A DNA stretch of 38,060 nucleotides from Acidimicrobiales bacterium (GTDB lineage Bacteria > Actinomycetota > Acidimicrobiia > Acidimicrobiales > Microtrichaceae). Under the pieces are notes generated by a model that saw only the letters and a program-made list of their open reading frames with translations, made no database searches and was not told the DNA's origin. This document shows, piece after piece, positions 5,916 through 23,841 of this stretch. The translations under genes and the position numbers were made by a program. Every line of letters starts with the position of its first letter. Position 1 is the stretch's first letter. The DNA is taken from contig JBBRSC010000001.1 in the NCBI GenBank assembly GCA_038245795.1, positions 1 through 38,060 on the forward strand, read 5' to 3'.

Positions 5916-5932
5916 TTCAACGAACTGTTGAA
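5916..5932. promoter_or_regulatory. Palindromic site TTCAAC-N5-GTTGAA (motif copy A)
   Basis: TTCAACGAACTGTTGAA. The minus strand reads TTCAACAGTTCGTTGAA and contains ACAGT-N2-GTTGAA. It lies 124 nt upstream of the SBP start, in the 173-nt intergenic region. Confidence 0.45.
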
Positions 5933-6055
5933 GGAGTAACACGCCGTTCACGATTCAGGACGACGTCGTTAACACAATGGACCTAAGTTCGGCACAGCCC
6001 TCACGGACGGCGACTCGCCATCCGCAGCAACCGAACCAGGGCAGAGGAGAAACCC

Positions 6056-7135
6056 GTGGCATCACAACTCGACCGGAGACGTTTCCTGCGAAACAGCGCA
6101 TTCGGCGGCGCCGTCGTGCTCGGCGGGCCGGCCCTGCTGGCAGCATGCGGTGACGACACCAAGACGACCACTGCTGCTGGCGGCGGCGGCGCCAAAGTCA
6201 GCCCGCTCGACTACCAACTCTCGTGGCTGAAAAACGCCGAGTTCGCCGGCAACTGGATTGCCTCTGAGAAGGGCTTCTACAAAGACGCTGGCTTCGATCC
6301 GGTCAACTTCATCGCCGGTGGCCCCGGGGTGCAGCAGGAACAGTCGGTGGTCTCCGGGAAGGCACTTGTCGGCATCTCCGGCCCCGACATCACCGGGCCC
6401 GCCATCCTCAAAGGTGCCCCACTGATCGCGCTCGGTGCGCTGTTCCAGAAGAACCCGTTCTGTTTCATGAGCCTTGCGAGCAAGCCCATCAAGACCGCCA
6501 AAGAACTCGAAGGCGTTCGCGTCGGCATCCAGGACGTCAACACCCCCGTGTGGAAAGCGTTCGTGGCAGCCAACAAGCTCGACGAGTCCAAGATCACCGT
6601 TGTGCCGGTGCAGTTCGACCCGCAGGGTCTCGTCAACGGCGAGGTCGATGCATGGTTCAGCTTCGTCACCAACGAGCCGAACGCTCTGCGAGCCGAAGGC
6701 ATCGAGGTCGAGGTGTTCCTGTTGGCCGATCAGGGATACCCCTTGGTCAGCCAGATCCTCTTCACCAAGCTCGATACCGTGAAGAACGATCGCGAGAAGT
6801 TGAAGGCATTGCTCAAGGCCGACATCATGGGCTGGCGCGAGTCGCTGAAGGATCCGGCACTCGGAGCAGGCTTCGCAGTCGACAAGTTCGGAAAGGACTT
6901 GGGACTCAAGCTCGAGGCCGCCACCGCGGAATCGAAGTCACAGAACGAACTGATCCTCACTGCCGACACCAAGGCCAACGGGATCTTCACCGTGAGCAAC
7001 GAGTTGCTCGCCGAGACGATCACGTCGCTCGGCTTCGGCGGAGTCAAGATCACCGAGAAGCAGCTTTTCGACTTCTCAGTACTCGAAGAGGTCTACGCGG
7101 CCAACCCTGAGCTCAAGAAGGATCCCACTGCATAG
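6056..7135 (+). CDS. ABC transporter substrate-binding lipoprotein, NMT1/THI5-like (NitT/TauT family)
   Basis: GTG start preceded by GGAGGAGAAACCC. Twin-arginine-like DRRRFLRNSAF plus the lipobox LLAAC. The body is typical of NMT1/THI5-type binding proteins (LDYQLSWLKNAEFAG...). Confidence 0.8.
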   Translation: MASQLDRRRFLRNSAFGGAVVLGGPALLAACGDDTKTTTAAGGGGAKVSPLDYQLSWLKNAEFAGNWIASEKGFYKDAGFDPVNFIAGGPGVQQEQSVVSGKALVGISGPDITGPAILKGAPLIALGALFQKNPFCFMSLASKPIKTAKELEGVRVGIQDVNTPVWKAFVAANKLDESKITVVPVQFDPQGLVNGEVDAWFSFVTNEPNALRAEGIEVEVFLLADQGYPLVSQILFTKLDTVKNDREKLKALLKADIMGWRESLKDPALGAGFAVDKFGKDLGLKLEAATAESKSQNELILTADTKANGIFTVSNELLAETITSLGFGGVKITEKQLFDFSVLEEVYAANPELKKDPTA

Positions 7136-7178
7136 TGCGATTGGCCGTTCGATGATTCGGAACCACACGCGATCGCGG

Positions 7179-7202
7179 CCCGCTCTCCTCAGGGGGAGCG
7201 GG
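7179..7202 (+). terminator. Stem-loop after the SBP gene (attenuator/terminator candidate)
   Basis: CCCGCTCTCC-tcag-GGGGAGCGGG. This is a 10-bp stem with one G.U pair, 44 nt after the SBP stop. There is no T-tract. Confidence 0.45.
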
Positions 7203-7289
7203 TCGTGTCGCGTCGGGGTAGGGCGGCCGTCCACTTTGTAACGCGGCGTTCACGGACGGCTGATGACAACGTAACGGCACGCTTCTAGC

Positions 7290-7306
7290 GTTGACAGTAT
7301 GTTGAA
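7290..7306 (+). promoter_or_regulatory. Motif copy B, overlapping a consensus -35 hexamer
   Basis: GTTGACAGTATGTTGAA. It contains TTGACA (7291-7296) and ACAGT-N2-GTTGAA (7294-7306), 37 nt upstream of ATG 7343. Confidence 0.45.
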
Positions 7307-7342
7307 CACGTGGGTGATGATCCCTTGGGGAGCGGCACAGAC

Positions 7343-8176
7343 ATGACAGCCACCGATGAGGTCATCGACCTCGCTCAACACGCGCCAGCGACCCGCTCGG
7401 GCATTCGACTCCGCGAGCTCACCAAGTCGTTCACGGTCAAGCGATCGGTCATTCGAGCGCTCGACAACGTGAGCTTCGACGCACCGGAGGGCGCCTTCGT
7501 CGCATTGCTGGGTCCCTCAGGTTGCGGCAAGTCGACCATCCTCCGCATCCTCGCTGATTTGGAACAACCGACATCGGGTACGGCCCAGGTCCATGGCGAG
7601 GCGCCCGGAGAGATCCGCAAACGTCATCACCTCGGCATCGCCTTCCAAGACGCAGCCCTGTTGCCGTGGCGATCCGTGGTCTCGAACATCAAATTGCCGT
7701 TGCAGGTGTCGGGCGTCAAGGTCGGCGATGAGGCCATCGCCGACCTGATCCGCCTTGTCGGATTGGAGGGGTTCGAACAAGCGAGACCCGGTCAGCTCTC
7801 GGGCGGTATGCGCCAGCGGGTTGCGATTGCGCGTGCCCTGGTGGTCGACCCCAAGGTGCTGCTCCTCGATGAGCCCTTCGGTGCACTCGACGAAATGACC
7901 CGCCAACGCCTCAACCTCGAACTGCAACGTATCTGGACCGAGCGTTCAGCCACCACGCTGCTCGTCACGCACTCCATTTCCGAGGCCGTTTTCTTGGCCG
8001 ACGTGGTTGCCGTCATGTCAGCTCGACCGGGGCGAATTGTCTCGACCGTGAAGATCGAGCTGCCCCGGCCACGCACCCCGGACATGATGCGTAGCCCCGA
8101 GTTCCACGCCTACTGCGACCAGTTCAGCGACCTCTTGTTCTCGGGCGGAGTTGCGCCGAGCGGAGATGACACATGA
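7343..8176 (+). CDS. ABC transporter ATP-binding protein (NitT/TauT family)
   Basis: Walker [10 protein letters not shown], signature [15 protein letters not shown] and Walker [15 protein letters not shown] 7343 is preceded by GGGGAG at 10-nt spacing. The track ORF begins at GTG 7310. Confidence 0.85.
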
Positions 8177-9000
8177 CGGCCATTGCCGCTCCCCGAGAGC
8201 TGCTGGCGAAGACGCCGATGGGCGAACGCGTCGGCGGCGCGGCGCGGCGTGCGATCCCTGGCTTCATGGGGTTCGCGGCACTCCTGATCGTGTGGGAAAT
8301 CGGCGGACGCATCGTCAGCTCCGGTCGCCGCATCCCGTTGGTCCCTCCGTTCAGCTCGGTGATGAGAGCGATCATCGACGATGGCTGGACCTATTACCGC
8401 CCCAACATCGGCACGACCCTCGGCTACGCGGCCGACGGGTGGTTGTGGGGCAACCTTCTGGCGATCGTGGCCGCTGGCGTGGTGCTGTTGATTCCGCGCC
8501 TGGAGCTGGTGATCATCCAGATCGGCGTGACGACGTACTGCCTGCCACTGGTGGCGGCCGCGCCATTGATCTTCCTCGTGTACACCGGCTCTACGCCGTA
8601 CCGGATCATCACCGTGCTGTTCGTGTTCTTCACCACGCTCGTCTTGACGCTCGCGGGACTGCGCGGAGCTGATCCCACGAGTCTGGACGTCGTCTGCGCG
8701 TATGGCGGTGGTCGCATTGAGGGGCTCCGGCGAGTCCGTCTCATCTCGGCGCTGCCGTCGATTTTTGCGGGCCTCAAGATTGCGGGCCCAGCGGCAGTCC
8801 TGGGGGCGGTGTTGGCCGAATTCTTCCAGCCCGCTGACAGCGGCCTCGGCGTTGGAATCATCCGAAGTCAACAACAACTCCAGGTCGAGCGCACGTGGGG
8901 GATCGCCATCGTGTCGACCCTGATCGGCGCCGCGGCGTACTTGCTCGTCGGTCTGGTTGCCCGGTTCGCCACACCATGGGCGCCGAAAGTGGAGATCTGA
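8173..9000 (+). CDS. ABC transporter permease 1
   Basis: ATGA overlap with the ATPase stop. Polytopic hydrophobic protein with a BPD-type loop region ([29 protein letters not shown]). Confidence 0.8.
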
Positions 9001-9001
9001 G

Positions 9002-9880
9002 ATGGCAGTCGTTCAGCTTCCCGCCGCGGTATCGGTCCTGCCCGATGCCCGCTCGAGTACCGGTGCGCTCAGCGCCGTGATACGACGGGTCGGCGTCACC
9101 CTCGGACGGGCCGTGATCGCTCTGACACTCGTGTTGGCCCTCTGGCAGGTCTTGGTGTGGAGCTGGGGTGAAGAGTTGGTCTTCTCGACTCGCGGCCCGT
9201 TGGACGTGTGGCGGTTCTGGATCGACAGTGCCAACGCGACAATCCGCGCCGACATCATCTCGAACCTCTGGATCACGCTGGGCCATGCTGGGCTGGGACT
9301 GCTGGCGGGCACGGTAGGAGCACTCCTCATCTCGTTCCTGTTCAGCTTGTTCAAGCCACTCGAGCAGAGCCTCATGCCGGTCGCCATGGTGATGCGATCG
9401 GTACCGCTCGTCGCCATGGCACCGCTCATCAGCTTGGTGTTCGGCCGGGACATTCTCACTGTCGCCATCGTCGGAGCGATCGTCACGTTCTTCCCCACAC
9501 TCGTCAACGTCAACATGGGGTTACGGATGGCACCCCAGCAGTCGGTCGACCTCATCAAGGCGTACGGCGGAGGACGGCTCTATACGTTGTTCCGCATCCA
9601 GTTTCCGTTCGCGCTGCCGGCGCTCTTCGCGGCCCTCCGTGCCACAGCACCCCTCGCCATCACTGGTGCAATGTTGGCGGAATTCTTCCTGGTCGGCAAT
9701 GGTCTCGGGCACTCGATCAACGTGGCCCGTAACGAGTTCGACTACACCTCGATGTGGGCACAGGCAGCGATCGCCACGCTCGCTGCGGTGCTCATCTACG
9801 CCATCTCGGTGGGTATCGAAGGGTCGGTCCTCGCACGATTCGCTCCCGACCGGGTGGCCGCGGCAAAGGCAAAGGCGTGA
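9002..9880 (+). CDS. ABC transporter permease 2
   Basis: ATG 9002 lies 1 nt after the permease-1 stop. Paralogous loop AYGGGRLYTLFRIQFPFALPALFAALRA. The track ORF start at 8957 would overlap permease 1. Confidence 0.8.
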   Translation: MAVVQLPAAVSVLPDARSSTGALSAVIRRVGVTLGRAVIALTLVLALWQVLVWSWGEELVFSTRGPLDVWRFWIDSANATIRADIISNLWITLGHAGLGLLAGTVGALLISFLFSLFKPLEQSLMPVAMVMRSVPLVAMAPLISLVFGRDILTVAIVGAIVTFFPTLVNVNMGLRMAPQQSVDLIKAYGGGRLYTLFRIQFPFALPALFAALRATAPLAITGAMLAEFFLVGNGLGHSINVARNEFDYTSMWAQAAIATLAAVLIYAISVGIEGSVLARFAPDRVAAAKAKA

Positions 9881-10875
9881 CGATCAGCACCGGTCGAGAT
9901 CTGTTCGCGCTCCCCAAAGGTCATCTCCATCTGCACCTCGAGGGCGGCATGCGCCCCGAGACCTTGGCCGAGTTGGCCCACGGATACGGCATGGAGGTCC
10001 CGGTCGTCAGCGGCTTTGGTTCGTTCACGGCCTTCGCCGACATGTACGTCGCGGCATGCGCCGTACTGCGCACCCCAGACGACTTGGCGCGACTGGTCGA
10101 CGAGACCGTGGCCGACGCGGCCGCGAGCGGTGCGGTGTGGTTCGAGCCGAGCTTCTACCCACCGCATCATCGAGCCACGTTCGGGTCCGATGAGGTATCA
10201 CTCGAGATCGTGCTCGACGCGTTAGCTGCGTCTGCCAAGCGTCATGGGGTGGCGTGCGGTCTGATGATGGGCACCGACCGGACCGTGGACCCCGCCGAAG
10301 CTGTGGTGCTGGCGCATCTTGCGGTCACGCATCGCGAGGCGGGGGTCGTGAGCCTGGGGCTGGCCAACGATGAGGTCATCGGCGCGCCCGAGGAGTATGT
10401 CGAAGCGTTCGAGATCGGTCGTGCTGGCGGATTGCTATCCACGCCCCACGCCGGCGAGCTGTGCGGACCCGAGTCGGTGCGCGGCGCTCTCGACACGCTC
10501 GGCGCGAATCGTCTGCAGCATGGCGTCCGGGCGATCGAGGATCCGGATCTCGTCAAGCGGCTCGCGGATGAAGGGGTCTGTTGCGACGTGTGCCCCACGT
10601 CCAACGTGTTGTTGGCAGTCGTGCCGGATCTCGCGTCGCATCCGCTGCGGGCGCTGTTGGCCGCGGGGGTGCCGTGCTCGATCAACGGCGACGATCCGCT
10701 GTTGTTCGGGCCGGGACTGCTGGAGGAGTACGAATTGTGCCGAACCGACCTCGGGCTGAGCGACGAAGACTTCGCCATGGTGGCCCGGGCATCGCTGACC
10801 CACTCCGGAGCGCCGTCCGATGTCGTGACCAAGGGACTCGCCCGCGTCGACGCTTGGATCGCCGCACCAGCCTGA
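9877..10875 (+). CDS. add: Adenosine/adenine deaminase family protein
   Basis: GTGA overlap with the permease-2 stop. Metal-ligand blocks HLHLHLEGG, TPHAGE and SINGDDPLLFG. Confidence 0.8.
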   Translation: MTISTGRDLFALPKGHLHLHLEGGMRPETLAELAHGYGMEVPVVSGFGSFTAFADMYVAACAVLRTPDDLARLVDETVADAAASGAVWFEPSFYPPHHRATFGSDEVSLEIVLDALAASAKRHGVACGLMMGTDRTVDPAEAVVLAHLAVTHREAGVVSLGLANDEVIGAPEEYVEAFEIGRAGGLLSTPHAGELCGPESVRGALDTLGANRLQHGVRAIEDPDLVKRLADEGVCCDVCPTSNVLLAVVPDLASHPLRALLAAGVPCSINGDDPLLFGPGLLEEYELCRTDLGLSDEDFAMVARASLTHSGAPSDVVTKGLARVDAWIAAPA

Positions 10876-10887
10876 GCCTCACCCGCG

Positions 10888-12267
10888 TCACTCCAACATT
10901 TCATTCAGGAGCGCATTGGCTCGGCGGGCGAGTTCGCGTTCGTCCTCGCGAACCAGCCGGCCCTCGCGCACCACGATCTCGCCGCCACACACCACCGTGT
11001 GGGCTCGATCCGACAACCCCGCCAACACCAATCCGATGAGGGGATCGTGCTGGCCGACCCGGTCGACCGTTCCAAGATCCCAACAGGAGATGTCGGCCGC
11101 CGCACCTACCTCGATGCGACCCAGTTCGAGCCGGCCGAGACATCCTGCCGACCCACGTGTGGCCATGGCCAACAGCTCACGCGCCGTCGGCCAACGGTCT
11201 GGATCCGGCTCACCGAAACGATGCGCGAGTGCTGCCAGACGAAGGTCGCCGAGCAGGTTGGCGCCATCGTTGCTGGCCGAGCCCGTGGTGCCGAAGCCGA
11301 CGTTGACGCCCGCCTCAAGAAACTCCCGTAACGGCGCGCATCCCCATCCCATCCGTAGATCCGGAGCCGGAAGGTGCGCCACCGATACCCCCGCCGCGGC
11401 CAATTGGGGGATCTCGTCGGCCGGAATGTCGACCACGTGCGCCACCCATGTCGCATCGTGAGCCCAACCGTGTCGAACCAGGAACTCCCACGGCGTGCAG
11501 CCGTAGCGCTCCTTGGCGAACGCCGTGTCGACCACCTCGTACAGATGCGTGTGCAGCCGCACCCCGGCGTACAACTCGGCCAGCCCGGCAAATGCCTCGA
11601 ACAGATCCGGGCCATCGACGTGCACCCCACACGGCGAAAGATCCACGCGAATCTGCGCACCCCGCCGCGGATCATGGAACTCCTCGATCAGCGCGCTGGC
11701 ATGGCGAAGGACCTCGCCGTGGTCCTGCACCAATCGCGGGTCCGCCGAGCCACCCTGCTCCCGGCCCAAGGTCAGCGTGCCGCGACCAGCGTGAAGCCGC
11801 GAACCAACCCGACGCGCCGCTCCGATCGTGGCTTCGATCAGCGGCTGCGTCGGCCCCGCATGATGCAGATAGTGCTGGTCGGCGGTGGTGGTCACCCCGC
11901 CCAGTAGCGACTCGGCCAACCCACATGCTGCCAGCGCCCCGATCAGCTCTGGCCCGAGCCGACCCGATTCCCACCAGTCGACACACCGCGCACCCAAGCC
12001 TGCGAGCCACGGTCCGATGAGCGCTCGTTCCAGCTCCGGAATGGCCCGAAGCCCCACCTGGTAGAGATGCTGATGGGCGTTGATCAACCCCGGCAGCACC
12101 AACAACTCCGACGCGTCGATGACCACGGCCCCCGTCGGTACGTCGAGTCCATCGCCGATCGAGGTGATCCAGCCATCCACGCAGTGGACGTCGACGTCCC
12201 GGAGCTCTCGGTCAGTTTCGTCGAAGGTAGCGAGATGGGCGATGTTGCGGAGCACCAGGTTCGTCAT
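10888..12267 (-). CDS. Amidohydrolase-superfamily deaminase (guanine/8-oxoguanine/pterin deaminase-like)
   Basis: LPGLINAHQHLYQ, LHTHLYE, VAHVVD and FGTTGSASND. Start is taken at ATG 12267 (MTNLVLRNIAHLATF). The upstream 149 codons of the track ORF cross the divergent promoter region. Confidence 0.75.
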   Translation of the reverse strand: MTNLVLRNIAHLATFDETDRELRDVDVHCVDGWITSIGDGLDVPTGAVVIDASELLVLPGLINAHQHLYQVGLRAIPELERALIGPWLAGLGARCVDWWESGRLGPELIGALAACGLAESLLGGVTTTADQHYLHHAGPTQPLIEATIGAARRVGSRLHAGRGTLTLGREQGGSADPRLVQDHGEVLRHASALIEEFHDPRRGAQIRVDLSPCGVHVDGPDLFEAFAGLAELYAGVRLHTHLYEVVDTAFAKERYGCTPWEFLVRHGWAHDATWVAHVVDIPADEIPQLAAAGVSVAHLPAPDLRMGWGCAPLREFLEAGVNVGFGTTGSASNDGANLLGDLRLAALAHRFGEPDPDRWPTARELLAMATRGSAGCLGRLELGRIEVGAAADISCWDLGTVDRVGQHDPLIGLVLAGLSDRAHTVVCGGEIVVREGRLVREDERELARRANALLNEMLE

Positions 12268-12320
12268 CGGACCATCATCGGCCCGTTGTGTTGCCGCCGC
12301 GTGAACAGTGCCGCGTTTAC

Positions 12321-12350
12321 CTGACAGTTTGTTGAAGTTGGGCGTAACTT
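12321..12350 (+). promoter_or_regulatory. Candidate leaderless promoter of the Mo-hydroxylase operon, including motif copy C
   Basis: CTGACA-N18-TAACTT, then 7 nt to GTG 12358. ACAGTTTGTTGAA (12324-12336) sits in the -35/spacer. Confidence 0.45.
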
Positions 12351-12357
12351 CGCGCCT

Positions 12358-13191
12358 GTGAAGCCACCCCCCTTCGCCTACTGCGACCCCGAGACCGTCG
12401 CCGACGTGTGCGACTTGCTGACCGAATGGGTCGACGACGCTGCGCTGCTGGCGGGGGGGCAGAGCCTCATCCCGTTGCTCAACCTGCGACTCGCCCGCCC
12501 CGGCCTGGTGATCGATCTCGGCCGGGTCGCCGGCCTCGACACGATTGAGCACCTCGCCACGGCACCCAACCACGCGGTCGTGCGATGTGGCGCTGGCGTC
12601 GGCGTCACTGCGTTGGCCACAGCGCATCCGGGCGCAGGAGTGGCCGAAGCCATCCACTGGATCGGCCATCCCCAGATCCGTGCTCGCACCACCGTCGGCG
12701 GCACCATCGCCCACGCCGACTCTGCCGCCGAACTCCCCGCCGTTTTGATGGCACTCGACGGTTCAGTCACTCTCCGCTCCGCCACATCGGAGCGGACCGT
12801 GATGGCGCAGGACTGGTTCGACGGGCCCTTTTCCACAACACGCGAGCCCGAGGAATTCATCGTGTCAGTCGATGTGCCGGTGCCCGATGGACCATCGTGG
12901 TGGGGGGAGGTGGCACGACGCCGCGGCGACTTCGCGTTGGTCGGAATGTTCGTGGCCCGCGATCGCGACACGTGGCGCGTTGCCCTCTCGGGCGTGGGAC
13001 CCACACCGGTCCGGGCATCCGGATGTGAGGGCGCGTTGGCGGGCGGCACGCTCGACGAGGCTTGCGCTGCCTTGGACCTCGATCTGGACCCGCCCGACGA
13101 TCTGCACGCCGGATCGAACCACCGTCGGTCGATTGCCCGTCAGTTGCTCCGCCGAGCGATGAGCGAACTCACCCCGGCGGTCGCGGCATGA
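12358..13191 (+). CDS. Mo-hydroxylase FAD-binding (medium, CoxM/XdhB-like) subunit
   Basis: 277 aa. AGGQSLIPLLNLRLARP FAD-binding block. First gene of the overlapping three-subunit set. Confidence 0.8.
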   Translation: MKPPPFAYCDPETVADVCDLLTEWVDDAALLAGGQSLIPLLNLRLARPGLVIDLGRVAGLDTIEHLATAPNHAVVRCGAGVGVTALATAHPGAGVAEAIHWIGHPQIRARTTVGGTIAHADSAAELPAVLMALDGSVTLRSATSERTVMAQDWFDGPFSTTREPEEFIVSVDVPVPDGPSWWGEVARRRGDFALVGMFVARDRDTWRVALSGVGPTPVRASGCEGALAGGTLDEACAALDLDLDPPDDLHAGSNHRRSIARQLLRRAMSELTPAVAA

Positions 13192-13700
13192 CGGCCATCA
13201 CCCCGGCGACCGATACCCGCGACACGACGTTCGTCCTCAATGGCACCGAGACCACGTTGAGGGTTCGACCGCGGACCCTGCTCAGCGACGCGCTCCGACA
13301 CGATGCCAGAGTTCACGGAACCCACGTCGGATGCGAACAGGGCGCATGCGGCGCCTGCACCGTGATCGTCGACGATGTGGCCCGTCGATCGTGTCTGACC
13401 CTGACCCCGCAGGTCCACGGGCGCATTGTCGAAACCATCGAGTCGGTGGCTGGGACCGTGGGCCTGGATCCCATCCAGCAGGCCATCCACGACGCCCACG
13501 GCCTGCAGTGCGGATTCTGCACGCCGGGCATCGTCATGTCGCTCGTTGCCGCGCGCCGAGCCGGGGCGGATCGCACGATCGCCGTCGACGAAGTGCTCGA
13601 CGGTCATCTCTGTCGATGCACCGGCTACATCAATTTGCGCGCCGCCATCGAGCTTGCGTGGAACGAACTGGAACCCAATTCCCTGGAGCCATCGTCGTGA
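13188..13700 (+). CDS. Mo-hydroxylase [2Fe-2S] (small, CoxS/XdhC-type ferredoxin) subunit
   Basis: ATGA overlap. Two cluster motifs, CEQGACGACTV and QCGFCTPG...CRCTGY. Confidence 0.85.
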   Translation: MTAITPATDTRDTTFVLNGTETTLRVRPRTLLSDALRHDARVHGTHVGCEQGACGACTVIVDDVARRSCLTLTPQVHGRIVETIESVAGTVGLDPIQQAIHDAHGLQCGFCTPGIVMSLVAARRAGADRTIAVDEVLDGHLCRCTGYINLRAAIELAWNELEPNSLEPSS

Positions 13701-16063: not shown

Positions 16064-17265
16064 CGATCTCAGAGATGATCCCAACCAACATCACCACTGC
16101 CCTCATTGGTGGCCGGGTCCTCGACCCCGCCAACGGACTCGATGTGATCGGTGATGTCGTCACCACCGATGGGCTCATCGTCGCTGTCGGTCCCGACGCT
16201 GCGCTGGCCTACCCAGACGCCGAGCGGATCGACTGCTCCGGTCTGGTGGTCACCCCCGGGCTGATCGACCTGCACGTCCACATCTATCCCGGGCTCGGCA
16301 ACTTCTGCGTCGGTCCAGATCAGGCCGGCGTCGAACGCGGGGTACCGATCGTGGTCGACGGTGGCACATCGGGCACCGCCACCATGCAGATCGCGCTCGA
16401 CTGGATCGATGCCGCCAAGCCGAAGACCCGCGTTCTGAACTTCATGGATCCGAACTCGCTCTACCTCGCGACCCACGACTTCATCTGCCACAAATTGGAG
16501 ATCGCCAACGATGTTCGCAACCTCGATCTCGAGGGCGCGTCGGCGATGATCGAGCGTCATGCCGATCGCATCGTGGGGTTCAAGGTCCGCGCGTGCCACA
16601 CAGGGGACCCCGAGACATCGCCGTTCCTTGAAGGCGCCAAGTCGATTGCGGGCAATCTGCCGATCATGGTGCACCTCGGACGCTTTCCGCACACGGCCTC
16701 GATCACCACGGACTCACTGCTCGATGCATTGCGCCCCGGCGACATCATCACTCACGCCTTCCGCGGCGCGTCGGGTGCGCTGGCCCGCCCCGAGCGTCTC
16801 CCGACCAGCCACTTCCGCGCCGCCGCCGACCGGGGTGTGCGGCTCGACGTGGGCCACTCGGCCACCGACTTCCGGTTCCGTGATGCACGCGAGATCATCG
16901 ACGCTGGCTACCCGCCGGACACCATCTCGACGGACATGAACCGCTTCAATATCGACCATCCAGTGATTTCGTTGGCCGAAACCATGTCAAAGATCCTCGC
17001 TCTGGGTGTGTCGCTGTCCGATGTGATCGCCATGGCCACCATCAACTCGGCGACCTCGATCCATCGCGAGAACGAGTTGGGCACGCTGTCCATCGGGCGA
17101 GCCGCTGAGGTGTCCGTGCTTCGGATCGAGGAGGGGCCAGCCTCGCTGACCGACGGATACGAGACAGTCCAGGCGAACGAGCGCCTCGTGCCCGTGGGTT
17201 GTCTCCGTGCCGGCGAATGGATTGCGGCGACGGCGGGGCTGCAGCCGGCCCTCGCCGCGGCCTGA
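16060..17265 (+). CDS. Amidohydrolase/deacetylase-family metallohydrolase (dihydroorotase-like, COG3964-type)
   Basis: ATGA overlap. TPGLIDLHVHIYPG metal block, then HLGRFPH, ITHAFRG and LDVGHS. Confidence 0.7.
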   Translation: MTISEMIPTNITTALIGGRVLDPANGLDVIGDVVTTDGLIVAVGPDAALAYPDAERIDCSGLVVTPGLIDLHVHIYPGLGNFCVGPDQAGVERGVPIVVDGGTSGTATMQIALDWIDAAKPKTRVLNFMDPNSLYLATHDFICHKLEIANDVRNLDLEGASAMIERHADRIVGFKVRACHTGDPETSPFLEGAKSIAGNLPIMVHLGRFPHTASITTDSLLDALRPGDIITHAFRGASGALARPERLPTSHFRAAADRGVRLDVGHSATDFRFRDAREIIDAGYPPDTISTDMNRFNIDHPVISLAETMSKILALGVSLSDVIAMATINSATSIHRENELGTLSIGRAAEVSVLRIEEGPASLTDGYETVQANERLVPVGCLRAGEWIAATAGLQPALAAA

Positions 17266-17298
17266 CCGCCCGGCCGACCCGAGGCGAGCATCGACGAC

Positions 17299-18321
17299 AT
17301 GAACGCGCTCGGCCAGGTGACGGTTGCGGTTCCGCACGACGAGCGGCTCAGACCGATCGTGCGCGCGCTGCGGGGAACGGCACCAGTTGTCGGGCGTTCG
17401 CTGGCTGAGCTCCGCAGCGAGCTGATCTCGCACCACGCCTCCGATGTCGAACGACTCCAACTCGATGGGTGGACGATCGAGACCATCGAGCCGGTAACGA
17501 CCATCGAGACAGCAGCGGATGGGAATTCCGTCGGAGCGGTGCGGGTGCCTTCGCTGATGACGGCGAAACGTTCGGTTCCAATTCCTCCAATACCTCGGCC
17601 CGTCGGCACGGTCATTGGCCTTCACGGCGGCGGGTACGTCGTGTGCTCCGCGCTCACTCACATTGCTCGCTTCGTACGGATGGTCCCGGCCGGGTGGGAT
17701 GTCGTCGTGCCGGAGTATCGATTGGCGCCAGAACATCCGTGTCCGTGCGCCATCGACGATGCGGTGGCAACCATCCGCTCCGTGCGCTCACGCACCCCAC
17801 CCGACCACCGAATCGTGCTCGTCGGCGACTCGGCCGGAGCCGGGCTGGTGCTCGCCACGTTGCAGGCGCTGGTCCGCAATCCGACGGCATCGGTCGACGC
17901 TGCGGTGTGTATCTCGCCGTGGGTCGATCTGACGTGTTCGTTCCCGTCGCACAGCACGCTCCTCGACGCCGATCCCTTCGCACACCTCGACGACCTGCCC
18001 ACCTACGCTGCCGCCTATGCCGGGACGCTCCCCCTCGAGGATGCACGGGTATCGCCCCTCAACGGCGAGATGCGTGGGCTGCCACCGGTGCTCATTCAGG
18101 TGGGCTCCGACGAAATTCTGCTCGATGACGCCCGCTCGTTGGCCGCCGCCATCCACGCGGCTGGCGGAGACGTGCGACTCGAGGAGTGGGCGAAGATGTT
18201 CCATACCTGGCACGGACACTTCGGGTCGCTGACGGGCGCAGATCTCGCCTGCGATGCGATTGTCCGGTTCATCGATGCAGCCAGTGAACGTCCAGCCCAC
18301 GAACCAATCGAGGAACCATGA
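17299..18321 (+). CDS. Alpha/beta hydrolase, hormone-sensitive-lipase-like esterase
   Basis: Oxyanion HGGGY, nucleophile elbow GDSAGAG and a C-terminal His region (MFHTWHGH). Confidence 0.75.
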   Translation: MNALGQVTVAVPHDERLRPIVRALRGTAPVVGRSLAELRSELISHHASDVERLQLDGWTIETIEPVTTIETAADGNSVGAVRVPSLMTAKRSVPIPPIPRPVGTVIGLHGGGYVVCSALTHIARFVRMVPAGWDVVVPEYRLAPEHPCPCAIDDAVATIRSVRSRTPPDHRIVLVGDSAGAGLVLATLQALVRNPTASVDAAVCISPWVDLTCSFPSHSTLLDADPFAHLDDLPTYAAAYAGTLPLEDARVSPLNGEMRGLPPVLIQVGSDEILLDDARSLAAAIHAAGGDVRLEEWAKMFHTWHGHFGSLTGADLACDAIVRFIDAASERPAHEPIEEP

Positions 18322-19721
18322 CCGACCCCTCCATGCCAGCTGACCCCATCGTGCACGATCTCGTCCTGGCTGGTGCCCGAACGCTTGTCACCATGGACGC
18401 CGAACGACGGGAGATCGTTGGGGGGTGGATTGCAGTCGACGGTGGTGTCGTCACCGCGATTGGTGGGCCCGAAGACGAACCGGCGGCCCGGAGAACGGTG
18501 CGGGTTGACGGCTGCCTCGTCACGCCGGGGCTGGTGAACACGCACCACCACATCTACCAGAACCTCACGAGATCGTTCCCGCCAGCAACCACGTCGAATC
18601 TCTTCGGATGGTTGACGACGCTGTATCCGATCTGGGCGAACCTCGACGAAGAGTCCGCCTACCTGTCGGCGTGGATCGGCTTCGCTGAACTGGCGCTCGG
18701 CGGGTGCACGACCACCATGGACCATCTCTATGTCCATCCCCACAACGGTGGGGACCTGATCACCGCCGAGATCACGGCGGCGAAGGAACTCGGTATGAGG
18801 TTCCACGCGACACGCGGGTCGATGAGCCGGTCCAAGAAGGACGGCGGCCTGCCTCCGGATGAGGTCGTGCAGGATGACGACACGATCCTCGCCGACTCCG
18901 AGCGTCTGGTGGGCATGCATCACGATCGCTCTGATCACGCCATGGTGCAGGTTGCGCTGGCCCCGTGTTCGCCGTTCTCGGTGACCCCCGGGTTGATGAC
19001 CTCAACCGCCGAGTTGGCGGAGCGCCTCGATGTTCGGCTGCACACTCACTTGGCGGAGGATGTCGATGAGGACGCCTACTGCCTCGAGGTGTACGGCTGT
19101 CGACCACTCGAGTACTTCGAGGATGTTGGTTGGGGAACGAATCGTTCGTGGGTCGCGCACTGCGTGTACCCGAACCATGAGGAGATCCAGAAGATGGCGG
19201 CGTGGGGCACCGGCGTGGCGCACTGCCCCAGCTCCAATCAGATGATCGGCGCGGGGCTGGCGCCGGTTCGCGAGTATCGAGACGCCGGCGTGTCAGTCGG
19301 GCTCGGGTGCGATGGTTCGTCGTCCACAGATTCGGCGTCGCTGTGGATGGAGACCCGCAACGCGCTGCTGCTGGGCCGCTTGCGCGGTGGACCCGAGGCC
19401 ATGCAGGCCAGGGAGGCGCTGGAGATGGCAACCCTGGGTGGGGCGGATTGTCTCGGTCGGGGTGGCACCCTCGGGGTGCTCACACCAGGATCGGCGGCCG
19501 ACATCGTGGTCTGGCCGCTGGAGGGCGTGCAGTATGCGGGCGCTTGGTCGGATCCGGTCGAGGCGCTACTGAGATGTGGACCGAACGCTGCGCGTCACAC
19601 GATCATTGCGGGTCGCTTCGTGGTCGAAGATGGTCGTCTCGTGGACCAGCGGGTTCCGGAGATGCTGGTTCGACACGAGGCTGTCGCCCGCCGCTGGCAA
19701 GGCCTCGCAGCCCGCCCCTGA
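18318..19721 (+). CDS. 8-oxoguanine deaminase-like amidohydrolase
   Basis: ATGA overlap. TPGLVNTHHHIYQNLTR...LFGWLTTLYPIW...GGCTTTMDHLY, LHTHLAEDVDE, VAHCVY and LGCDGSSSTD match my memory of 8-oxoguanine deaminase blocks. Confidence 0.75.
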   Translation: MTDPSMPADPIVHDLVLAGARTLVTMDAERREIVGGWIAVDGGVVTAIGGPEDEPAARRTVRVDGCLVTPGLVNTHHHIYQNLTRSFPPATTSNLFGWLTTLYPIWANLDEESAYLSAWIGFAELALGGCTTTMDHLYVHPHNGGDLITAEITAAKELGMRFHATRGSMSRSKKDGGLPPDEVVQDDDTILADSERLVGMHHDRSDHAMVQVALAPCSPFSVTPGLMTSTAELAERLDVRLHTHLAEDVDEDAYCLEVYGCRPLEYFEDVGWGTNRSWVAHCVYPNHEEIQKMAAWGTGVAHCPSSNQMIGAGLAPVREYRDAGVSVGLGCDGSSSTDSASLWMETRNALLLGRLRGGPEAMQAREALEMATLGGADCLGRGGTLGVLTPGSAADIVVWPLEGVQYAGAWSDPVEALLRCGPNAARHTIIAGRFVVEDGRLVDQRVPEMLVRHEAVARRWQGLAARP

Positions 19722-19743
19722 CCAAGAACCCTCGTTCTGGGTC
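19720..19743. terminator. Hairpin spanning both stop codons of convergent genes
   Basis: GACCaAGAAC-cctc-GTTCTgGGTC. This gives 9 bp with one internal mismatch and overlaps TGA 19719-19721 and the minus-strand stop at 19742-19744. Confidence 0.35.
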
Positions 19744-20758
19744 AGCGCTGCACAGCGTCGAGCCGATCACCGATGTGGCCAGTGGAGTCGGCCGCGATTT
19801 GGGTTCGCCCACCGACGAGCTTGTTCATGAGGTGATCCAGCGCACGCACCGGCTCGTAGCGGGCCGGATTGTCGCCGGAGCAACAGGTCGGAAGACACTC
19901 CACACGAGCATCCCAGTTGCCGTCGTGGAAAAACGCGTAGGACCGCCGCAACGCGGGCCCGACGATTGCGTCCGGCGGCGGGACCACTCGGTGCACCGTC
20001 GATCGCCAGCGGTCGTTCGTCCACTGCGCCATCAGGTCCCCGATGTTGACCACATAGGCGCCGGGTTCAGGCACCACATCTACCCAGTCATGATCGGGAC
20101 CGATGATCTGCAATCCCGGGACCGAATCCGCTAACAGCACGGTGATGATCCCGTAGTCGGTATGCGCACCCATACGCTGTTGACCCGGTTCCGGCGCCGG
20201 CGCGCCCTCGGCCCGGCGATACCAGTTACAACGCAGCGTGTCGGTCGAATGAGTGGTGAAAGACTCGAAGAAGTCAGCGTCGAGTCCCAATCCGACGGCG
20301 CACAACGCCGTGAGTCGGTGCGCCAACGCTGTCACTTCGGCGAAGTACGTCATGCCGTCGCGGCGGAGTTCGGGGCACTCGGTGGGCCACACGTTGTCCG
20401 CAAAGATCCGGTGTCGCTCGGCGACGATGGCCGGGTCGGTTTCATCGAAGTCTTCCGGGCCGAAATTGAAGGCCTCGAAGAGATCAGGCGGAGCTTCCAC
20501 GCCCAACGAGTACGCCAACGATTCGGCGCCGATGGCTGAATACCCGTTGTTCACATCGGGCGACGGGGGTGGGTAGGACAGCTTCGTTGCCAGCGGTAAG
20601 CCGAAGAAGGCATCGACGGCCACCCGAAGTGCGACGATCACGTCGGCGTCGACGCCATGGTTGACCACTTGAAAGAAGCCGAGGCTCGAGGCTGCGGCAT
20701 CGATCTGCACGGGCGCGCCCGCATCTGCGAGATCGATGACGGGAACCGTGAATGCCAC
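19742..20758 (-). CDS. 2OG-Fe(II) oxygenase, isopenicillin-N-synthase-like
   Basis: N-terminal DIOX_N-like VPVIDL...GFFQVVNHGV. Facial triad HTD (RMGAHTDYG) plus WRSTVHRVV, and RRSYAFF (R-x-S). GTG 20758 lies 4 nt after the upstream stop. Alternative ATGs at 20788 and 20794 overlap the upstream gene. Confidence 0.75.
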   Translation of the reverse strand: MAFTVPVIDLADAGAPVQIDAAASSLGFFQVVNHGVDADVIVALRVAVDAFFGLPLATKLSYPPPSPDVNNGYSAIGAESLAYSLGVEAPPDLFEAFNFGPEDFDETDPAIVAERHRIFADNVWPTECPELRRDGMTYFAEVTALAHRLTALCAVGLGLDADFFESFTTHSTDTLRCNWYRRAEGAPAPEPGQQRMGAHTDYGIITVLLADSVPGLQIIGPDHDWVDVVPEPGAYVVNIGDLMAQWTNDRWRSTVHRVVPPPDAIVGPALRRSYAFFHDGNWDARVECLPTCCSGDNPARYEPVRALDHLMNKLVGGRTQIAADSTGHIGDRLDAVQR

Positions 20759-20762
20759 AGCG

Positions 20763-21470
20763 CTATCCCAACATCGGCGACGCGTCATCAACATCTGCGA
20801 TGCCGAGTCGCGCCATCCGCCGGTTGTAGGCCACACGCCCGGCCTGTTCGAGTTCGAACGTCCGATCGACCCGTGCCAGAACGGCCGCCCGATCATCGGC
20901 GGTGACGCAGTAACGTTTGATGAGGCGACGGCCCAACTTCATGTGGAACTGCTCGTCGGGGATGATCCGGTCGAAGGCCTTCTGGACATCCTCCGGCAGA
21001 CGCGGTCGGATCTGGACAAAGGCCTGACACGCGCCGAGCTCGCCGGTCAGGTTGTGCGCTGCGACGCGCTCGATGGTGGTGTCGCCGCTTGGGTACCACT
21101 CATCGATCCACTCCTCCCACTCCGGTTCGGGCGTCCAGTTGTCGAGCGATGTCACGCCGCGACGAGCCAACGCTCGCATGCAGTACTCGTAGTGCAACGC
21201 CTCGTCCTCGACCTGCTGAGCAAGCAGCACGAGCGCGTCGGGTTCCGGAGTCTTGACCAGCCAACCACCGATGAACTGACATGCACGCAGCTCGTAGTAC
21301 GCCTGGAACGACAACCACTCCACGAGTTCGTGCTCCGAGAACGGCCGGTTGAAGAAGTTGGCAGCCTCGGGATCTTCGATGGCGGCGCGTCGGGCCTCGA
21401 TGTGATCGATCAACTCAGACCAGTAGTCGGGCCCGTCCGGTTCGATGAGCTCGGTATCGAGGAGAGTCAT
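20763..21470 (-). CDS. Ferritin-like diiron-carboxylate protein (putative oxygenase/oxidase)
   Basis: 235 aa from ATG 21470, which forms an ATGA overlap. The ligand pattern is duplicated: E60...E90-A-L-H93 and E144...E173-Q-F-H176, with 30- and 29-residue spacing. This is the canonical E-X(29-30)-E-X-X-H x2 four-helix-bundle signature. Confidence 0.65.
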   Translation of the reverse strand: MTLLDTELIEPDGPDYWSELIDHIEARRAAIEDPEAANFFNRPFSEHELVEWLSFQAYYELRACQFIGGWLVKTPEPDALVLLAQQVEDEALHYEYCMRALARRGVTSLDNWTPEPEWEEWIDEWYPSGDTTIERVAAHNLTGELGACQAFVQIRPRLPEDVQKAFDRIIPDEQFHMKLGRRLIKRYCVTADDRAAVLARVDRTFELEQAGRVAYNRRMARLGIADVDDASPMLG

Positions 21471-22312
21471 GGGGTTCCGATCTGTTGGTCGATCGGGCCG
21501 AACCCGATCGCTGAAGTATCCGACGTGACATAGCTCGTGTCGGGTCGGGCGGCATCCGTCGTCCATCCCCAGATGCGCCACAGATGTCGGGCGGTGTCCT
21601 CGTAGGGATCACGGCCGTGAAACAGGCGCGAGTTGTCACCGATGAGGATCTCGCCAGCGAACAGATGGAATCGGGGCAGGCGCGCTTCGAGATCAACCAG
21701 CCGTTCCGCGAACCTGCCGACCATCACACGGGTGTGCTCCGGATCAGCATCGTCGGGCAGCGGTTCGTTGCGAATGGATCGCACCCACACGTTGCGTCCG
21801 GTCTCGATCACTGAGCAGATCGGCCCCATCGAGATGACCTTGCCAGGTTCCGTGCGATCGAGCGGAACGGTCACGAGAAAATCAGCAAGTTCTCGATCGG
21901 CATCGTCACCGTCGGAGAGACCCGCCAGCCAACGATCCATGTCCACGAGGAACGAGTCGCCACCGGGAACATCGCGCACGCATCCCAGGGCCAGGACATC
22001 AGGTGCTCCTTCAGCCAGGGCGAAGCCATCGGAATGCAGCGGCGTCCGCAGGAGGTGACCCTCGGCATCGAGGTCGGGGCGATCTTTCCCACCAGCGGCA
22101 CGCACTTCGACGGCGTCGCCGATGTGAACGAGGCGATCAGCGAACACGGCGGTGAGGACACCGACGATGCCGGGTGCGGTGTCACCGTCGCCGATCCACA
22201 CGACAGCGCCCTCGCGCTCGACGAGTCTCCTCGCCGCCGCCGGATCATCAGTTCGTTCCGGTACGACCCCGACACCGGTCGGGTCCAGGAATCCCGTCGA
22301 TCGAACACTCAT
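21467..22312 (-). CDS. TauD/TfdA-family Fe(II)/2OG dioxygenase-like protein
   Basis: ATG 22312 forms an ATGA overlap with the upstream amidohydrolase stop. PLHSDG (H-x-D), distal His in GDNSRLFHGRDPY, and a downstream Arg (ARHLWR). Confidence 0.65.
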   Translation of the reverse strand: MSVRSTGFLDPTGVGVVPERTDDPAAARRLVEREGAVVWIGDGDTAPGIVGVLTAVFADRLVHIGDAVEVRAAGGKDRPDLDAEGHLLRTPLHSDGFALAEGAPDVLALGCVRDVPGGDSFLVDMDRWLAGLSDGDDADRELADFLVTVPLDRTEPGKVISMGPICSVIETGRNVWVRSIRNEPLPDDADPEHTRVMVGRFAERLVDLEARLPRFHLFAGEILIGDNSRLFHGRDPYEDTARHLWRIWGWTTDAARPDTSYVTSDTSAIGFGPIDQQIGTP

Positions 22313-23694
22313 GCGCGCTCCTCGAGGACGGCCGTACGCCGCTCGAACAATTCTTCCGCAGCCGCCTGACCGTTGGTCATCACGGACGATTCGTCGACCG
22401 ACAACACGCGTCCACCTTCGACCAGGAGCCGTCCGTCGACCCATACTGACGCCACGTCGGATCCGGACGCGGTGAACACCAGATGCGCCGCGATGTTCTG
22501 ATCATGATCGAGAAACGTCGGGACGAACTGGACCTTGCGAAGATCGACCATCACAACGTCGGCCTGCTTCCCTGCCTCCAGCGAGCCCGTTACTTCATCG
22601 AGGCCGAGCGCTGCGGCCCCCTCGATCGTCGCCATGGTGAGGACATCCCACGGATCGCCAAGGGTGGCATCAAGTGTCGAGACTTTCTGGAGCAGCGACG
22701 CAAACTTCATCTCCTCGAAGAGGTCGAGATTGTTGTTCTCCTTCTCGCCGTCGCTCCCCAACCCCAACGAGATTCCGGCGGCCCGCATGTCCCGGACGCG
22801 AGCCGGACCGGAGGCGAGCTTCATGTTGGAGCACGGGCAATGCACCGCCGACGTGCCGGTCTGGGCCATGAGCTCGATCTCCCGATCATCGAGCCAGACG
22901 CAGTGCGCCACCACGGTGCGGTCCGACAGGATCCCTCGGTTGAAGAACTCCTCGATCGGGCGGCGACCGAATCGCTTCAACGATTCCTGGACTTCCCAGA
23001 TCGACTCGGAGCTGTGCGTATGGAGCCCGGTGTCGTACTCCTCAGCGAGCGCCATGGCGTCTCGGAAACACTTCGGCGTGCAATACAGCAGGTGCTCCAA
23101 CCCCACCCAGGTTCGGACTCGACCATTCGAAGCGGTCCGGTGCGACTTCAGGAGCGCAAGGTTCGAGTCAAGCGTTTCGAAGTAGTCGTACCCCTCCTCA
23201 TCAGCAACGTACGGGACCAGCGTGGCGCGGATCCCGACGGCCTCGGCGGCTGCGGCCGACCCCTCCATGAAGCGCCACATGTCCATCACCGACGTGTTTC
23301 CGAAACGCAGATTCTCTGTATAGGCAACCATGCTGGCGGCCGCCGCGATCTCCGGCGTCATCGCACGATGCGCAGGATCGACATAGGCCTCGAGCCAGTC
23401 GAACAGCGCCATGGACTCGGCCGTGCCGCGCAGCAATCCGGAATGCATGTGGCAGTTGTGCAGGCCCGGGAGCACGGCGTGGCCCGTGGCGTCGACAACG
23501 TCTGCCCCGACAGCGAGCGGGTGCGCGTCGATCTCCTCGACGGTCCCGACAGCGACAATTCGCTCGCCCAGGATCAGAACTGATCCACAAGGAATCAGCC
23601 GATTCCGTTGCGACGAGCCGCCAGCCATTGCAAGCACGGCACCCCCCCGGATCAGGAGCGCGGCGGTGTCAATGGCGGCTGCTTCAGACTGCAC
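22309..23694 (-). CDS. Amidohydrolase-superfamily deaminase/chlorohydrolase (MtaD/TRZ-ATZ-like)
   Basis: GTG 23694. LPGLHNCHMHSGLLRG, LHTHSSESIWE, VAHCVWL and LGSDGEKENNNLDLFEEMK. Confidence 0.75.
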   Translation of the reverse strand: MQSEAAAIDTAALLIRGGAVLAMAGGSSQRNRLIPCGSVLILGERIVAVGTVEEIDAHPLAVGADVVDATGHAVLPGLHNCHMHSGLLRGTAESMALFDWLEAYVDPAHRAMTPEIAAAASMVAYTENLRFGNTSVMDMWRFMEGSAAAAEAVGIRATLVPYVADEEGYDYFETLDSNLALLKSHRTASNGRVRTWVGLEHLLYCTPKCFRDAMALAEEYDTGLHTHSSESIWEVQESLKRFGRRPIEEFFNRGILSDRTVVAHCVWLDDREIELMAQTGTSAVHCPCSNMKLASGPARVRDMRAAGISLGLGSDGEKENNNLDLFEEMKFASLLQKVSTLDATLGDPWDVLTMATIEGAAALGLDEVTGSLEAGKQADVVMVDLRKVQFVPTFLDHDQNIAAHLVFTASGSDVASVWVDGRLLVEGGRVLSVDESSVMTNGQAAAEELFERRTAVLEERA

Positions 23695-23700
23695 CGCTCC

Positions 23701-23741
23701 AATCTCGTGGCCACCGGCGTCCGCGTCAACAGTTTGTCAAC
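23701..23741 (-). promoter_or_regulatory. Divergent promoter core with motif copy D
   Basis: The minus strand reads GTTGACAAACTGTTGACG-N17-GAGATT-N6-GTG(23694). The plus strand reads GTCAACAGTTTGTCAAC (23725-23741), a direct GTCAAC repeat at 11-bp phase. Confidence 0.4.
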
Positions 23742-23841
23742 GCGCTTCACACAGGGTTCACGAACCGCACAGCGCCACACTCGTCCTTTGTGTGCCGGAA
23801 CTCACCCGTGATCCGGCCGCCAAGTGAGGGAATATGGAGCA

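Follow-up and report, generated by a model that had tools for sequence, protein, structure and literature searches.

The stretch of DNA considered here, referred to as the window, is the 38,060-nucleotide contig C1 (JBBRSC010000001.1) of a draft genome of an Acidimicrobiales bacterium (GCA_038245795.1, hereafter G000), whose 407 contigs amount to 3,368,468 bases with 64% G+C at 90% completeness. Pfam matches identify in it a purine-type catabolic island that comprises an NMT1-type ABC importer, an adenosine deaminase, a three-subunit molybdenum hydroxylase (Mo-hydroxylase), six amidohydrolases and a fused ABC exporter, along with oxygenases of the Rieske, PhyH, TauD and 2-oxoglutarate (2OG) types. 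Set between these operons is a short recurring element, which a preliminary description of the window had recorded as the string ACAGT-N2-GTTGAA at four intergenic promoter regions, here called sites A to D. A fifth copy, site E, lies on contig C118 of the same assembly beside the gene for a small helix-turn-helix (HTH) protein, and we argue below that the element is the predicted operator of a regulator of purine catabolism. As the assembly is fragmented and incomplete, further sites may exist.

The element is highly specific to this pathway. The exact string, ACAGTNNGTTGAA, matches three times in the 38-kb window against an expectation of 0.01, a count of at least three was reached in 0 of 100 shuffled sequences, and the entire 3.37-Mb assembly contains only four matches, the fourth being at C118:5471-5487. 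A position weight matrix (PWM) derived from 11 sites recovers the five sites A to E at 22.6–29.3 bits, each of them intergenic, with a clear gap in score below them. Sub-threshold matches on contigs C96, C11, C9, C199 and C178 (at most 20.8 bits) all fall within long open reading frames (ORFs) and were discarded. The four strings of the preliminary description are thus where it had placed them, three as exact copies and D as a variant. Its observation that they occupy non-coding gaps just 5' of operon heads is borne out for all four and extends to the fifth on C118, and its remark that coding sequence holds no exact copy is true genome-wide, since all four exact copies are intergenic. It had also proposed a weight-matrix scan of the whole genome with a shuffled background; in that scan the pattern is not spread through coding DNA, and the five intergenic sites stand out. 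Both over-represented and confined to non-coding DNA, as an operator should be, the sites occupy the gaps 5' of the first genes of five units: the gene for the substrate-binding protein (SBP) of the importer, the ABC ATPase gene, the divergent amidohydrolase/Mo-hydroxylase pair, the divergent pair formed by an amidohydrolase-oxygenase operon and the exporter, and a second Mo-hydroxylase operon (Table 1).

Alignment of the sites reveals an imperfect 15-bp inverted repeat, T(C/T)(A/G)ACA-N3-TGT(T/C)(G/A)A, with the consensus (G)TCAACAGTTTGTTGA(A) and a centre that is usually GTT. Positions A5, C6, A7, G12, T13 and A16 are invariant in 23 distinct sites from the organism's own family and close relatives (Microthrixaceae-type) and nearly invariant in 60 distinct sites from other Actinomycetota. 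Each arm takes one of two forms, TCAACA or TTGACA, and sites B, C and E carry one of each; since a TTGACA arm is often paired with a TCAACA arm, these three sites look like a direct repeat, GTTGA-N6-GTTGA. That reading fits just three sites genome-wide, and it was dropped once perfect palindromes, TCAACAGTCTGTTGA, had been seen at several sites of the related genome G006. The preliminary description had proposed a pair of hexamers 11 bp apart, bound by a dimeric or tandem-binding regulator over the -35 region. A dimeric type of site and an overlap with the -35 element are both supported, and the direct hexamers give way to the inverted repeat TCAACA-N3-TGTTGA, whose arm structure has the dyad symmetry suited to a dimeric HTH protein.

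Table 1. Sites, genes, putative promoters and accessory hexamers in the window and on contig C118 of G000
Feature	Coordinates	Strand	Description
Site A	5916..5932	-	+ strand TTCAACGAACTGTTGAA, minus strand TTCAACAGTTCGTTGAA; 28.1 bits; 124 nt 5' of NMT1-type SBP gene
Site B	7290..7306	+	GTTGACAGTATGTTGAA; 26.7 bits; core 7294-7306 ACAGTATGTTGAA after TTG
Site C	12320..12336	+	CCTGACAGTTTGTTGAA; 26.1 bits; core 12324-12336 ACAGTTTGTTGAA after CTG; in 90-nt divergent gap
Site D	23725..23741	+	GTCAACAGTTTGTCAAC; 22.6 bits; 23729-23741 is ACAGTTTGTCAAC; divergent from fused ABC exporter gene
Site E	C118:5471-5487		GTTGACAGTTTGTTGAA; 88-nt gap between HTH_22 gene and second Mo-hydroxylase operon
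HTH_22 protein, 129 aa	C118:5547-5936		Divergent from second Mo-hydroxylase operon; PF13309, E 2.7e-19, 69.4 bits vs 29.6 cut-off
Thiamine_BP protein, 77 aa	C118:5956-6189	-	PF01910, MTH1187/YkoF-like; convergent with HTH_22 gene, 19 nt apart
NMT1/THI5-like SBP	6056..7135	+	Putative regulon member via A; Pfam PF09084, E 5.6e-40
ABC ATPase, two permeases, adenosine deaminase (operon)	7310..10875	+	Putative regulon member via B; Pfam; TIGR01430 267.5 bits vs 216.55 cut-off
Amidohydrolase, 8-oxoguanine-deaminase/chlorohydrolase type	10888..12267	-	Divergent from C; Pfam; NCBIfam below cut-off
Mo-hydroxylase operon: flavin adenine dinucleotide (FAD), 2Fe-2S and molybdenum cofactor (MoCo) subunits, amidohydrolase, alpha/beta hydrolase, 8-oxoguanine deaminase	12358..19721	+	Putative regulon member via C; Pfam
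Amidohydrolase, TauD-like, unknown protein, 2OG-Fe(II) oxygenase (operon)	19742..23694	-	Putative regulon member via D; Pfam; orthologous G006 operon preceded by site
Fused ABC exporter	23824..27489	+	Divergent from D
Promoter B (putative)	7291-7296; 7316-7321	+	TTGACA arm 7291-7296 equals consensus -35; 19-nt spacer; possible -10 GATGAT 7316-7321
Promoter C (putative)	12321-12326; 12345-12350	+	CTGACA 12321-12326, 18 nt, TAACTT 12345-12350, 7 nt, GTG 12358; leaderless
Promoter D (putative)	23729-23724; 23706-23701	-	TTGACG 23729-23724, 17 nt, GAGATT 23706-23701, 6 nt, GTG 23694
Promoter E (putative)	C118 ~5440-5460 (hexamer and GTG)		TTGACA, 18 nt, GAGAAT, 7 nt, GTG
GTTCAC	5946..5951	+	13 nt from site A
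GTTCAC	7248..7253	+	36 nt 5' of site B
GTGAAC	12301..12306	+	13 nt 5' of site C; on minus strand part of TTCAC-n6-GCAAC
CTTCAC and GTTCAC	23745..23761	+	3 and 14 nt from site D

The dyads are retained at orthologous promoters whose flanks have diverged, a pattern found in the related genomes G023, G006, G047 and G048, which include other genera, and in Streptomyces, Kitasatospora and Saccharopolyspora. G023, whose regulator is 65% identical, carries the very same 17-mer, equally far from the gene for the FAD subunit, and the flanking intergenic bases differ. The closed genome G006 (regulator 56% identical) carries the window island and the C118 locus as one contiguous cluster of ~35 kb (G006:C1:4122000-4160500) with seven sites; because the two are contiguous there, C118 is probably the neighbour of contig C1 in the chromosome itself, joined most likely to the left end of the window past the Rieske/PhyH genes. 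Sites in the G006 cluster precede the orthologues of the site-D amidohydrolase, the 8-oxoguanine deaminase, the amidohydrolase that follows the MoCo subunit, the SBP gene and the second Mo-hydroxylase, and a further one occupies the divergent FAD-subunit/amidohydrolase gap. This last site shares its core, CTGACAGTTTGTTGAAG, with site C, as does the orthologous gap in G047. The orthologue of site D, ATCAACAGTCTGTTGAC (25.4 bits), stands directly 5' of an amidohydrolase that is 72% identical, and that of site A, ATCAACATTTCGTTGAT in PWM orientation, is weaker at 16.0 bits. Positions vary among the G006 sites: one is immediately next to an ATG, and another is situated 3' of a -10-like TAGGGT. Two more strong dyads occur at a second G006 locus (G006:C1, ~1.625-1.629 Mb), a few kb from an M20 amidase, and are conserved in G048. 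The G006 cluster also encodes proteins with no counterpart in the window, namely a purine-nucleoside-phosphorylase-family protein, an MFS transporter, a pterin-4a-carbinolamine dehydratase and a GNAT protein.

The preliminary description had found no cognate regulator in the island, and this is true of the window, where no HTH protein linked to the sites is encoded; a strong candidate is present instead on C118, next to the fifth site. This 129-residue protein is the product of the sole HTH_22 gene in the assembly and is encoded divergently from a second Mo-hydroxylase operon, in which an M20 amidase gene follows those for the FAD, 2Fe-2S and MoCo subunits. In the ~35-kb cluster of G006 the HTH_22 protein is the only DNA-binding protein encoded. 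Of the 79 family genomes, counting G000 itself, only G000, G023 and four of a sister genus, g7, have a close orthologue of the regulator, and the string follows the protein: ACAGTNNGTTGA has 8, 4, 5 and 7 matches in the four g7 genomes with the regulator and 0, 0, 0, 0 and 1 in five without it. As for other regulators in the window, its small ORFs yield no more than a P-II protein and, at 33827-34153, a weak MarR-like ORF that is distant from all sites. The C-terminal HTH of PucR (PF13556) has no Pfam match on the HTH_22 regulator or on any window ORF tested, and the regulator has no match to the PAS_6/YheO sensor domain at E values up to 0.01. A structure model of the regulator (predicted local distance difference test score, pLDDT, 84) comprises an alpha-beta3-alpha domain followed by the three helices of the HTH. 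In the region of the last HTH helix, the residues VSR-T-YNYLN do not vary among the aligned regulators, as would suit a conserved operator. No relative of the regulator was found in the PDB by sequence or by fold, and NCBIfam holds no model for the regulator or for its partner.

That partner is a small Thiamine_BP protein, encoded on C118 immediately beyond the HTH_22 gene. A Thiamine_BP homologue is present at all 93 regulator loci examined and lies within 400 nt of the regulator gene in 92 of them, directly upstream on the same strand in 78, convergent in 8 (the arrangement of the organism's own family) and downstream in 6. In genomes G028 and G086 the two are joined in frame, as Thiamine_BP-HTH_22 fusions of 205 and 220 residues with a GTG start 5' of the Thiamine_BP domain. 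Based on this Rosetta-stone link, we propose that the Thiamine_BP protein is the sensor of the system.

The association of dyad and gene pair extends well beyond the family. A scan with the regulator alignment, limited to one genome per species and to the best 80 of at least 588 loci, places as the nearest named relatives among the matches listed uncultured Microthrixaceae metagenome-assembled genomes, then Saccharopolyspora, Streptomyces, Kitasatospora, Actinopolyspora, Embleya and Intrasporangium. At 56 of the 80 loci the regulator has a site scoring 18 bits or more within 10 kb, usually within 500 nt, whereas the reversed-sequence control returned none in the 80 loci (~1.3 Mb). The operator still flanks the regulator operon in several further Acidimicrobiia where its sequence has drifted to TTGACA-N3-TGTCAA. 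Streptomyces presents the clearest arrangement: the Thiamine_BP and HTH_22 genes overlap by ATGA and are followed by a terminator-like hairpin and then the dyad, and TTCAACAAA(C/G)TGTTGAC-N17-TTAGCT precedes an operon of uraD (OHCU decarboxylase), hiuH, uricase, amidohydrolase and xanthine/uracil permease genes. A second copy, TT(C/A)AACAAACTGTTGAC-N18-TAGGCT-7-ATG, is located 5' of a catalase gene. In the complete 8.4-Mb genome of Streptomyces sp. NBC_00158, 3 dyads are exact and 17 lie within one mismatch, compared with 2 in the reversed control; one dyad lies 10 nt 5' of an allantoinase-like gene whose divergent neighbour is an allR-like IclR gene, and another ~400 nt 5' of urease genes. 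A dyad of this genome is also found between a cydA-like gene and a 125-residue ORF. In Streptomyces, Kitasatospora and Saccharopolyspora the dyad holds a fixed position that overlaps the -35 element, its centre ~40 nt 5' of the inferred transcription start. Kitasatospora and Streptodolium have, in addition, a weaker dyad 5' of the Thiamine_BP/HTH_22 operon itself, which suggests that the operon may be autoregulated in these genera.

The pathway encoded in the island is one of purines and not of a generic N-heterocycle, given that both the 8-oxoguanine deaminase and the adenosine deaminase exceed curated cut-offs. The former, at 18318-19721, scores 604.7 bits on NF006055 (cut-off 532) and is the best match in G000 (44.6%) to the amidohydrolase of the Streptomyces urate operon. 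Searches of the 90%-complete G000 assembly by tblastn returned no uricase, HIU hydrolase, OHCU decarboxylase, catalase or xanthine/uracil permease. Since these classical urate genes were not found, the content of the regulon differs from that in Streptomyces: G000 shares its regulator and operator with the urate regulon of Streptomyces, and the regulon is rewired in G000 toward Mo-hydroxylases and amidohydrolases. That the importer, the hydroxylase operon and the oxygenase/exporter pair form one regulon, as had been suggested, is supported by the specificity of the element, its conservation at promoters and its co-occurrence with the regulator. Membership of the exporter is uncertain because the orthologous site in G006 has another divergent neighbour, a GNAT-domain protein, and site D most plausibly drives the minus-strand amidohydrolase/oxygenase operon. 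A GC-rich inverted repeat lacking a T-run, CCCGCTC...GAGCGGG at 7179-7202, lies between the SBP gene and site B and may separate the SBP transcript from the ATPase operon.

How the dyads are placed relative to promoters was approximated by positioning hexamers by hand under a looser actinobacterial TAnnnT rule. On this placement, the dyad at B, C and E would span the -35 element and the spacer (centre at about -28), with its TTGACA-type arm serving as the -35 element, and the dyad at D and in Streptomyces would span about -48 to -32, with its downstream TTGAC arm in that role. The true start of the ABC ATPase gene is probably the ATG at 7344. A leaderless geometry, with an nAnnnT hexamer 6-7 nt 5' of a GTG, appears to be common to the operon heads at C, D and E. 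This shared geometry, together with the G023 orthologue, favours an internal GTG over the annotated-looking ATG as the start of the C118 FAD-subunit gene.

Considering these data together, we think it probable that the element is the operator of a pathway-specific and probably repressing regulator of purine (oxopurine) catabolism, most likely the 129-residue HTH_22 protein acting with a Thiamine_BP sensor. How specific the motif is, its dyad form and conservation, the link to the gene pair and the content of the regulon are read directly from the genomes, and we infer from sequence DNA binding and dimerisation of the HTH_22 protein, the sign of regulation, the sensor role of its partner and the effector. 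The HTH_22 protein would bind the 15-bp dyad as a dimer, and either arm may be TTGACA. A repressor is favoured because the dyad covers the core promoter, where a bound protein should occlude RNA polymerase; occupancy would exclude the polymerase, and a purine-derived metabolite, sensed by the Thiamine_BP protein, would lead to release of the repressor. More broadly, we consider it somewhat more likely than not that Actinomycetota possess a previously unrecognised, phylum-wide switch for purine/urate catabolism, in which a Thiamine_BP sensor and a short HTH_22 protein, sometimes fused, would act on a TCAACA-N3-TGTTGA dyad that also serves as a -35 element. Its regulon would have been rewired between lineages, from uricase, catalase and allantoinase in Streptomyces to Mo-hydroxylases, amidohydrolases and an ABC importer in Microthrixaceae-like Acidimicrobiia.

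Several observations weigh against the proposed repressor and its operator. No site of at least 18 bits was found at 24 of the 80 homologue loci, and as the regulator resides within the same gene island as its proposed targets, co-occurrence could partly reflect co-inheritance. A strict sigma-70 promoter scan calls no promoter in any of the gaps that contain a site, and neither site A nor the G006 site that abuts a start codon matches the -35 overlap. The fused Thiamine_BP-HTH_22 protein was modelled with low confidence (pLDDT 64) and a disordered linker region, so that the packing of its domains is uninterpretable. Finally, a dyad centred near -40, as in Streptomyces, is also compatible with a class II activator.

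This last point leads to the possibility that the regulator and operator are as proposed and the sign is not, with class II activation from about -40 or a dual role set by the position of the site. The fixed dyad centre in Streptomyces, Kitasatospora and Saccharopolyspora speaks for such an activator, and the weak -10 hexamers placed in the window, coupled with the silence of the strict scan, make activator help conceivable. At B, C and E, however, the dyad fills the spacer between -35 and -10, where ordinary activators fail; the position of the site relative to start codons varies, as the two G006 sites described above illustrate; and the -35 arm, TTGAC(A/G), is close to the consensus as it stands, suggesting that by default the promoter is active. 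We therefore regard activation as unlikely. It is very improbable, in our view, that no dedicated factor is involved and that the element is simply the strong -35-like hexamers (TTGACA/TTGAA) of housekeeping promoters, or the recurrence of a chance sequence or repeat element. One arm does often equal the -35 consensus, TTGACA, but RNA polymerase has no need of the second arm or of the central ACAGT..TGT, and both are as conserved as the -35 arm, which excludes a mere -35 hexamer. Chance would, moreover, have to account for five copies in a genome that all fall at one pathway, and for a dyad kept beside one gene pair across classes of Actinomycetota when the control gives 0.

A different regulator might also bind the dyad, such as an IclR-type AllR, a MarR-type urate sensor, or a GntR or TetR protein, with HTH_22 a co-inherited neighbour. 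An AllR-like IclR protein is the most serious candidate of this kind because one Streptomyces dyad adjoins allR: it lies between the allantoinase-like and allR-like genes, and weaker dyads precede allR-like genes in Kitasatospora and Streptodolium. The small MarR-like ORF in the window could likewise be invoked for a urate sensor. Yet the IclR paralogues of G000 are just 27–30% identical and are encoded on contigs without dyads, and the 35-kb cluster of G006 contains no IclR-like match and no other DNA-binding protein. An IclR gene is present in the fetched DNA of 8 of 86 loci, compared with an adjacent Thiamine_BP gene at 92 of 93. The AllR box of E. coli, KTTGGAAWAWTWTTCCAAC (PMC8222616), differs from the dyad. 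Furthermore, the drifted operator of the variant clade still tracks the HTH_22 operon. A regulator other than the HTH_22 protein thus appears quite improbable.

The surroundings of the dyads contain a second kind of element. GTTCAC/GTGAAC hexamers occur at 0.70 per site within 80 nt of the dyads, compared with 0.11 expected (20 sites), and at sites A and C, at site E and at G006 sites a GTGA(A/C)C begins 19-20 nt before the 17-mer, which indicates a preferred position. The pair at site D is repeated in arrangement at its G006 orthologue as GTGAAC-5-GTGAAAC-2-site. Some of these accessory hexamers form (G/T)TCAC-n6-G(A/C)AAC, which resembles the box of actinobacterial GlnR (gTnAc-n6-GnAAc). The strict GlnR-like pattern occurs in G000 at site C only (0.03 expected within 70 nt of the five sites), and again at the G006 counterparts of C and E, at the G023 counterpart of E and at sites of locus L057. 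The accessory hexamers could belong to a nitrogen regulator or some other second regulator, or they could be additional weak half-sites of the HTH_22 operator, and the explanation as GlnR boxes is suggestive only. The region upstream of amtB (C65 ~3890-3960) contains GAAAC-n6-GTAAC-n17-GCAAC in helical phase. On its minus strand, the site-C gap reads TTCAC-gcggcg-GCAACACA at 12287-12306, and it has the 9-mer GGCAACACA in common with the amtB upstream region. These features hint at nitrogen control in addition to the pathway-specific control.

If the proposed system is correct, it would assign a function to two very common, nameless actinobacterial proteins and supply the missing regulator of the Streptomyces urate-to-allantoin operon. 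Purine catabolism is known from work on AllR and XdhR to influence antibiotic production in Streptomyces. The literature that can be searched, which includes few subscription journals, yielded no operator for any HTH_22/YheO/DauR protein, no relevant paper containing the motif string, no paper linking MTH1187/YkoF proteins to regulation, and no paper devoted to the gene immediately 5' of the urate operon in S. coelicolor. In that organism SCO6209-6211 correspond to hpxQ/T/O (PMC4991794), and SCO6208, immediately upstream, is listed as a 'putative transposase' in one transcriptome table (PMC3897704). As far as that literature goes, the dyad would be the first operator sequence for an HTH_22 protein, and the system would suggest that the MTH1187/YkoF fold has acquired a new role in transcriptional sensing. 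The dyad offers a precise marker of purine/N-heterocycle catabolic operons in uncultured Actinomycetota, and the sensor/operator pair could become a biosensor for purines or urate.

Among known systems, the candidate has its C-terminal HTH_22 domain in common with regulators of the YheO/DauR/Cj1387c type (PAS_6 plus HTH_22), which are likewise small, pathway-linked and encoded beside their targets; Cj1387c represses its neighbouring gene (PMC4519771). Unlike YheO and DauR, the candidate shows no match to PAS_6 and has a short alpha-beta3-alpha N-terminal domain, and sensing by PAS_6 appears to be replaced here by a separate or fused Thiamine_BP protein. Because PAS_6 is one of the defining features of YheO/DauR, we class the system as a variant in which a short HTH_22 protein is paired with Thiamine_BP. 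In its working it resembles PucR of Bacillus subtilis, a dedicated factor that recognises a short box before many purine-degradation operons (transporters, xanthine dehydrogenase, uricase, allantoinase) and before its own gene; PucR belongs to another protein family, has another box and is mainly an activator. AllR, an IclR-family protein of E. coli and Streptomyces coelicolor, is the allantoin repressor of the lower part of the same pathway; it differs in its IclR fold and, in E. coli, its unrelated box, and it has no orthologue in G000 or in the G006 cluster. XdhR (TetR family) and the urate-responsive MarR proteins HucR and PecS are actinobacterial or Deinococcus repressors of xanthine dehydrogenase and uricase genes that respond to purine metabolites. 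They belong to other families, and none is encoded beside the dyads described here, where the conserved neighbour is the HTH_22/Thiamine_BP pair.

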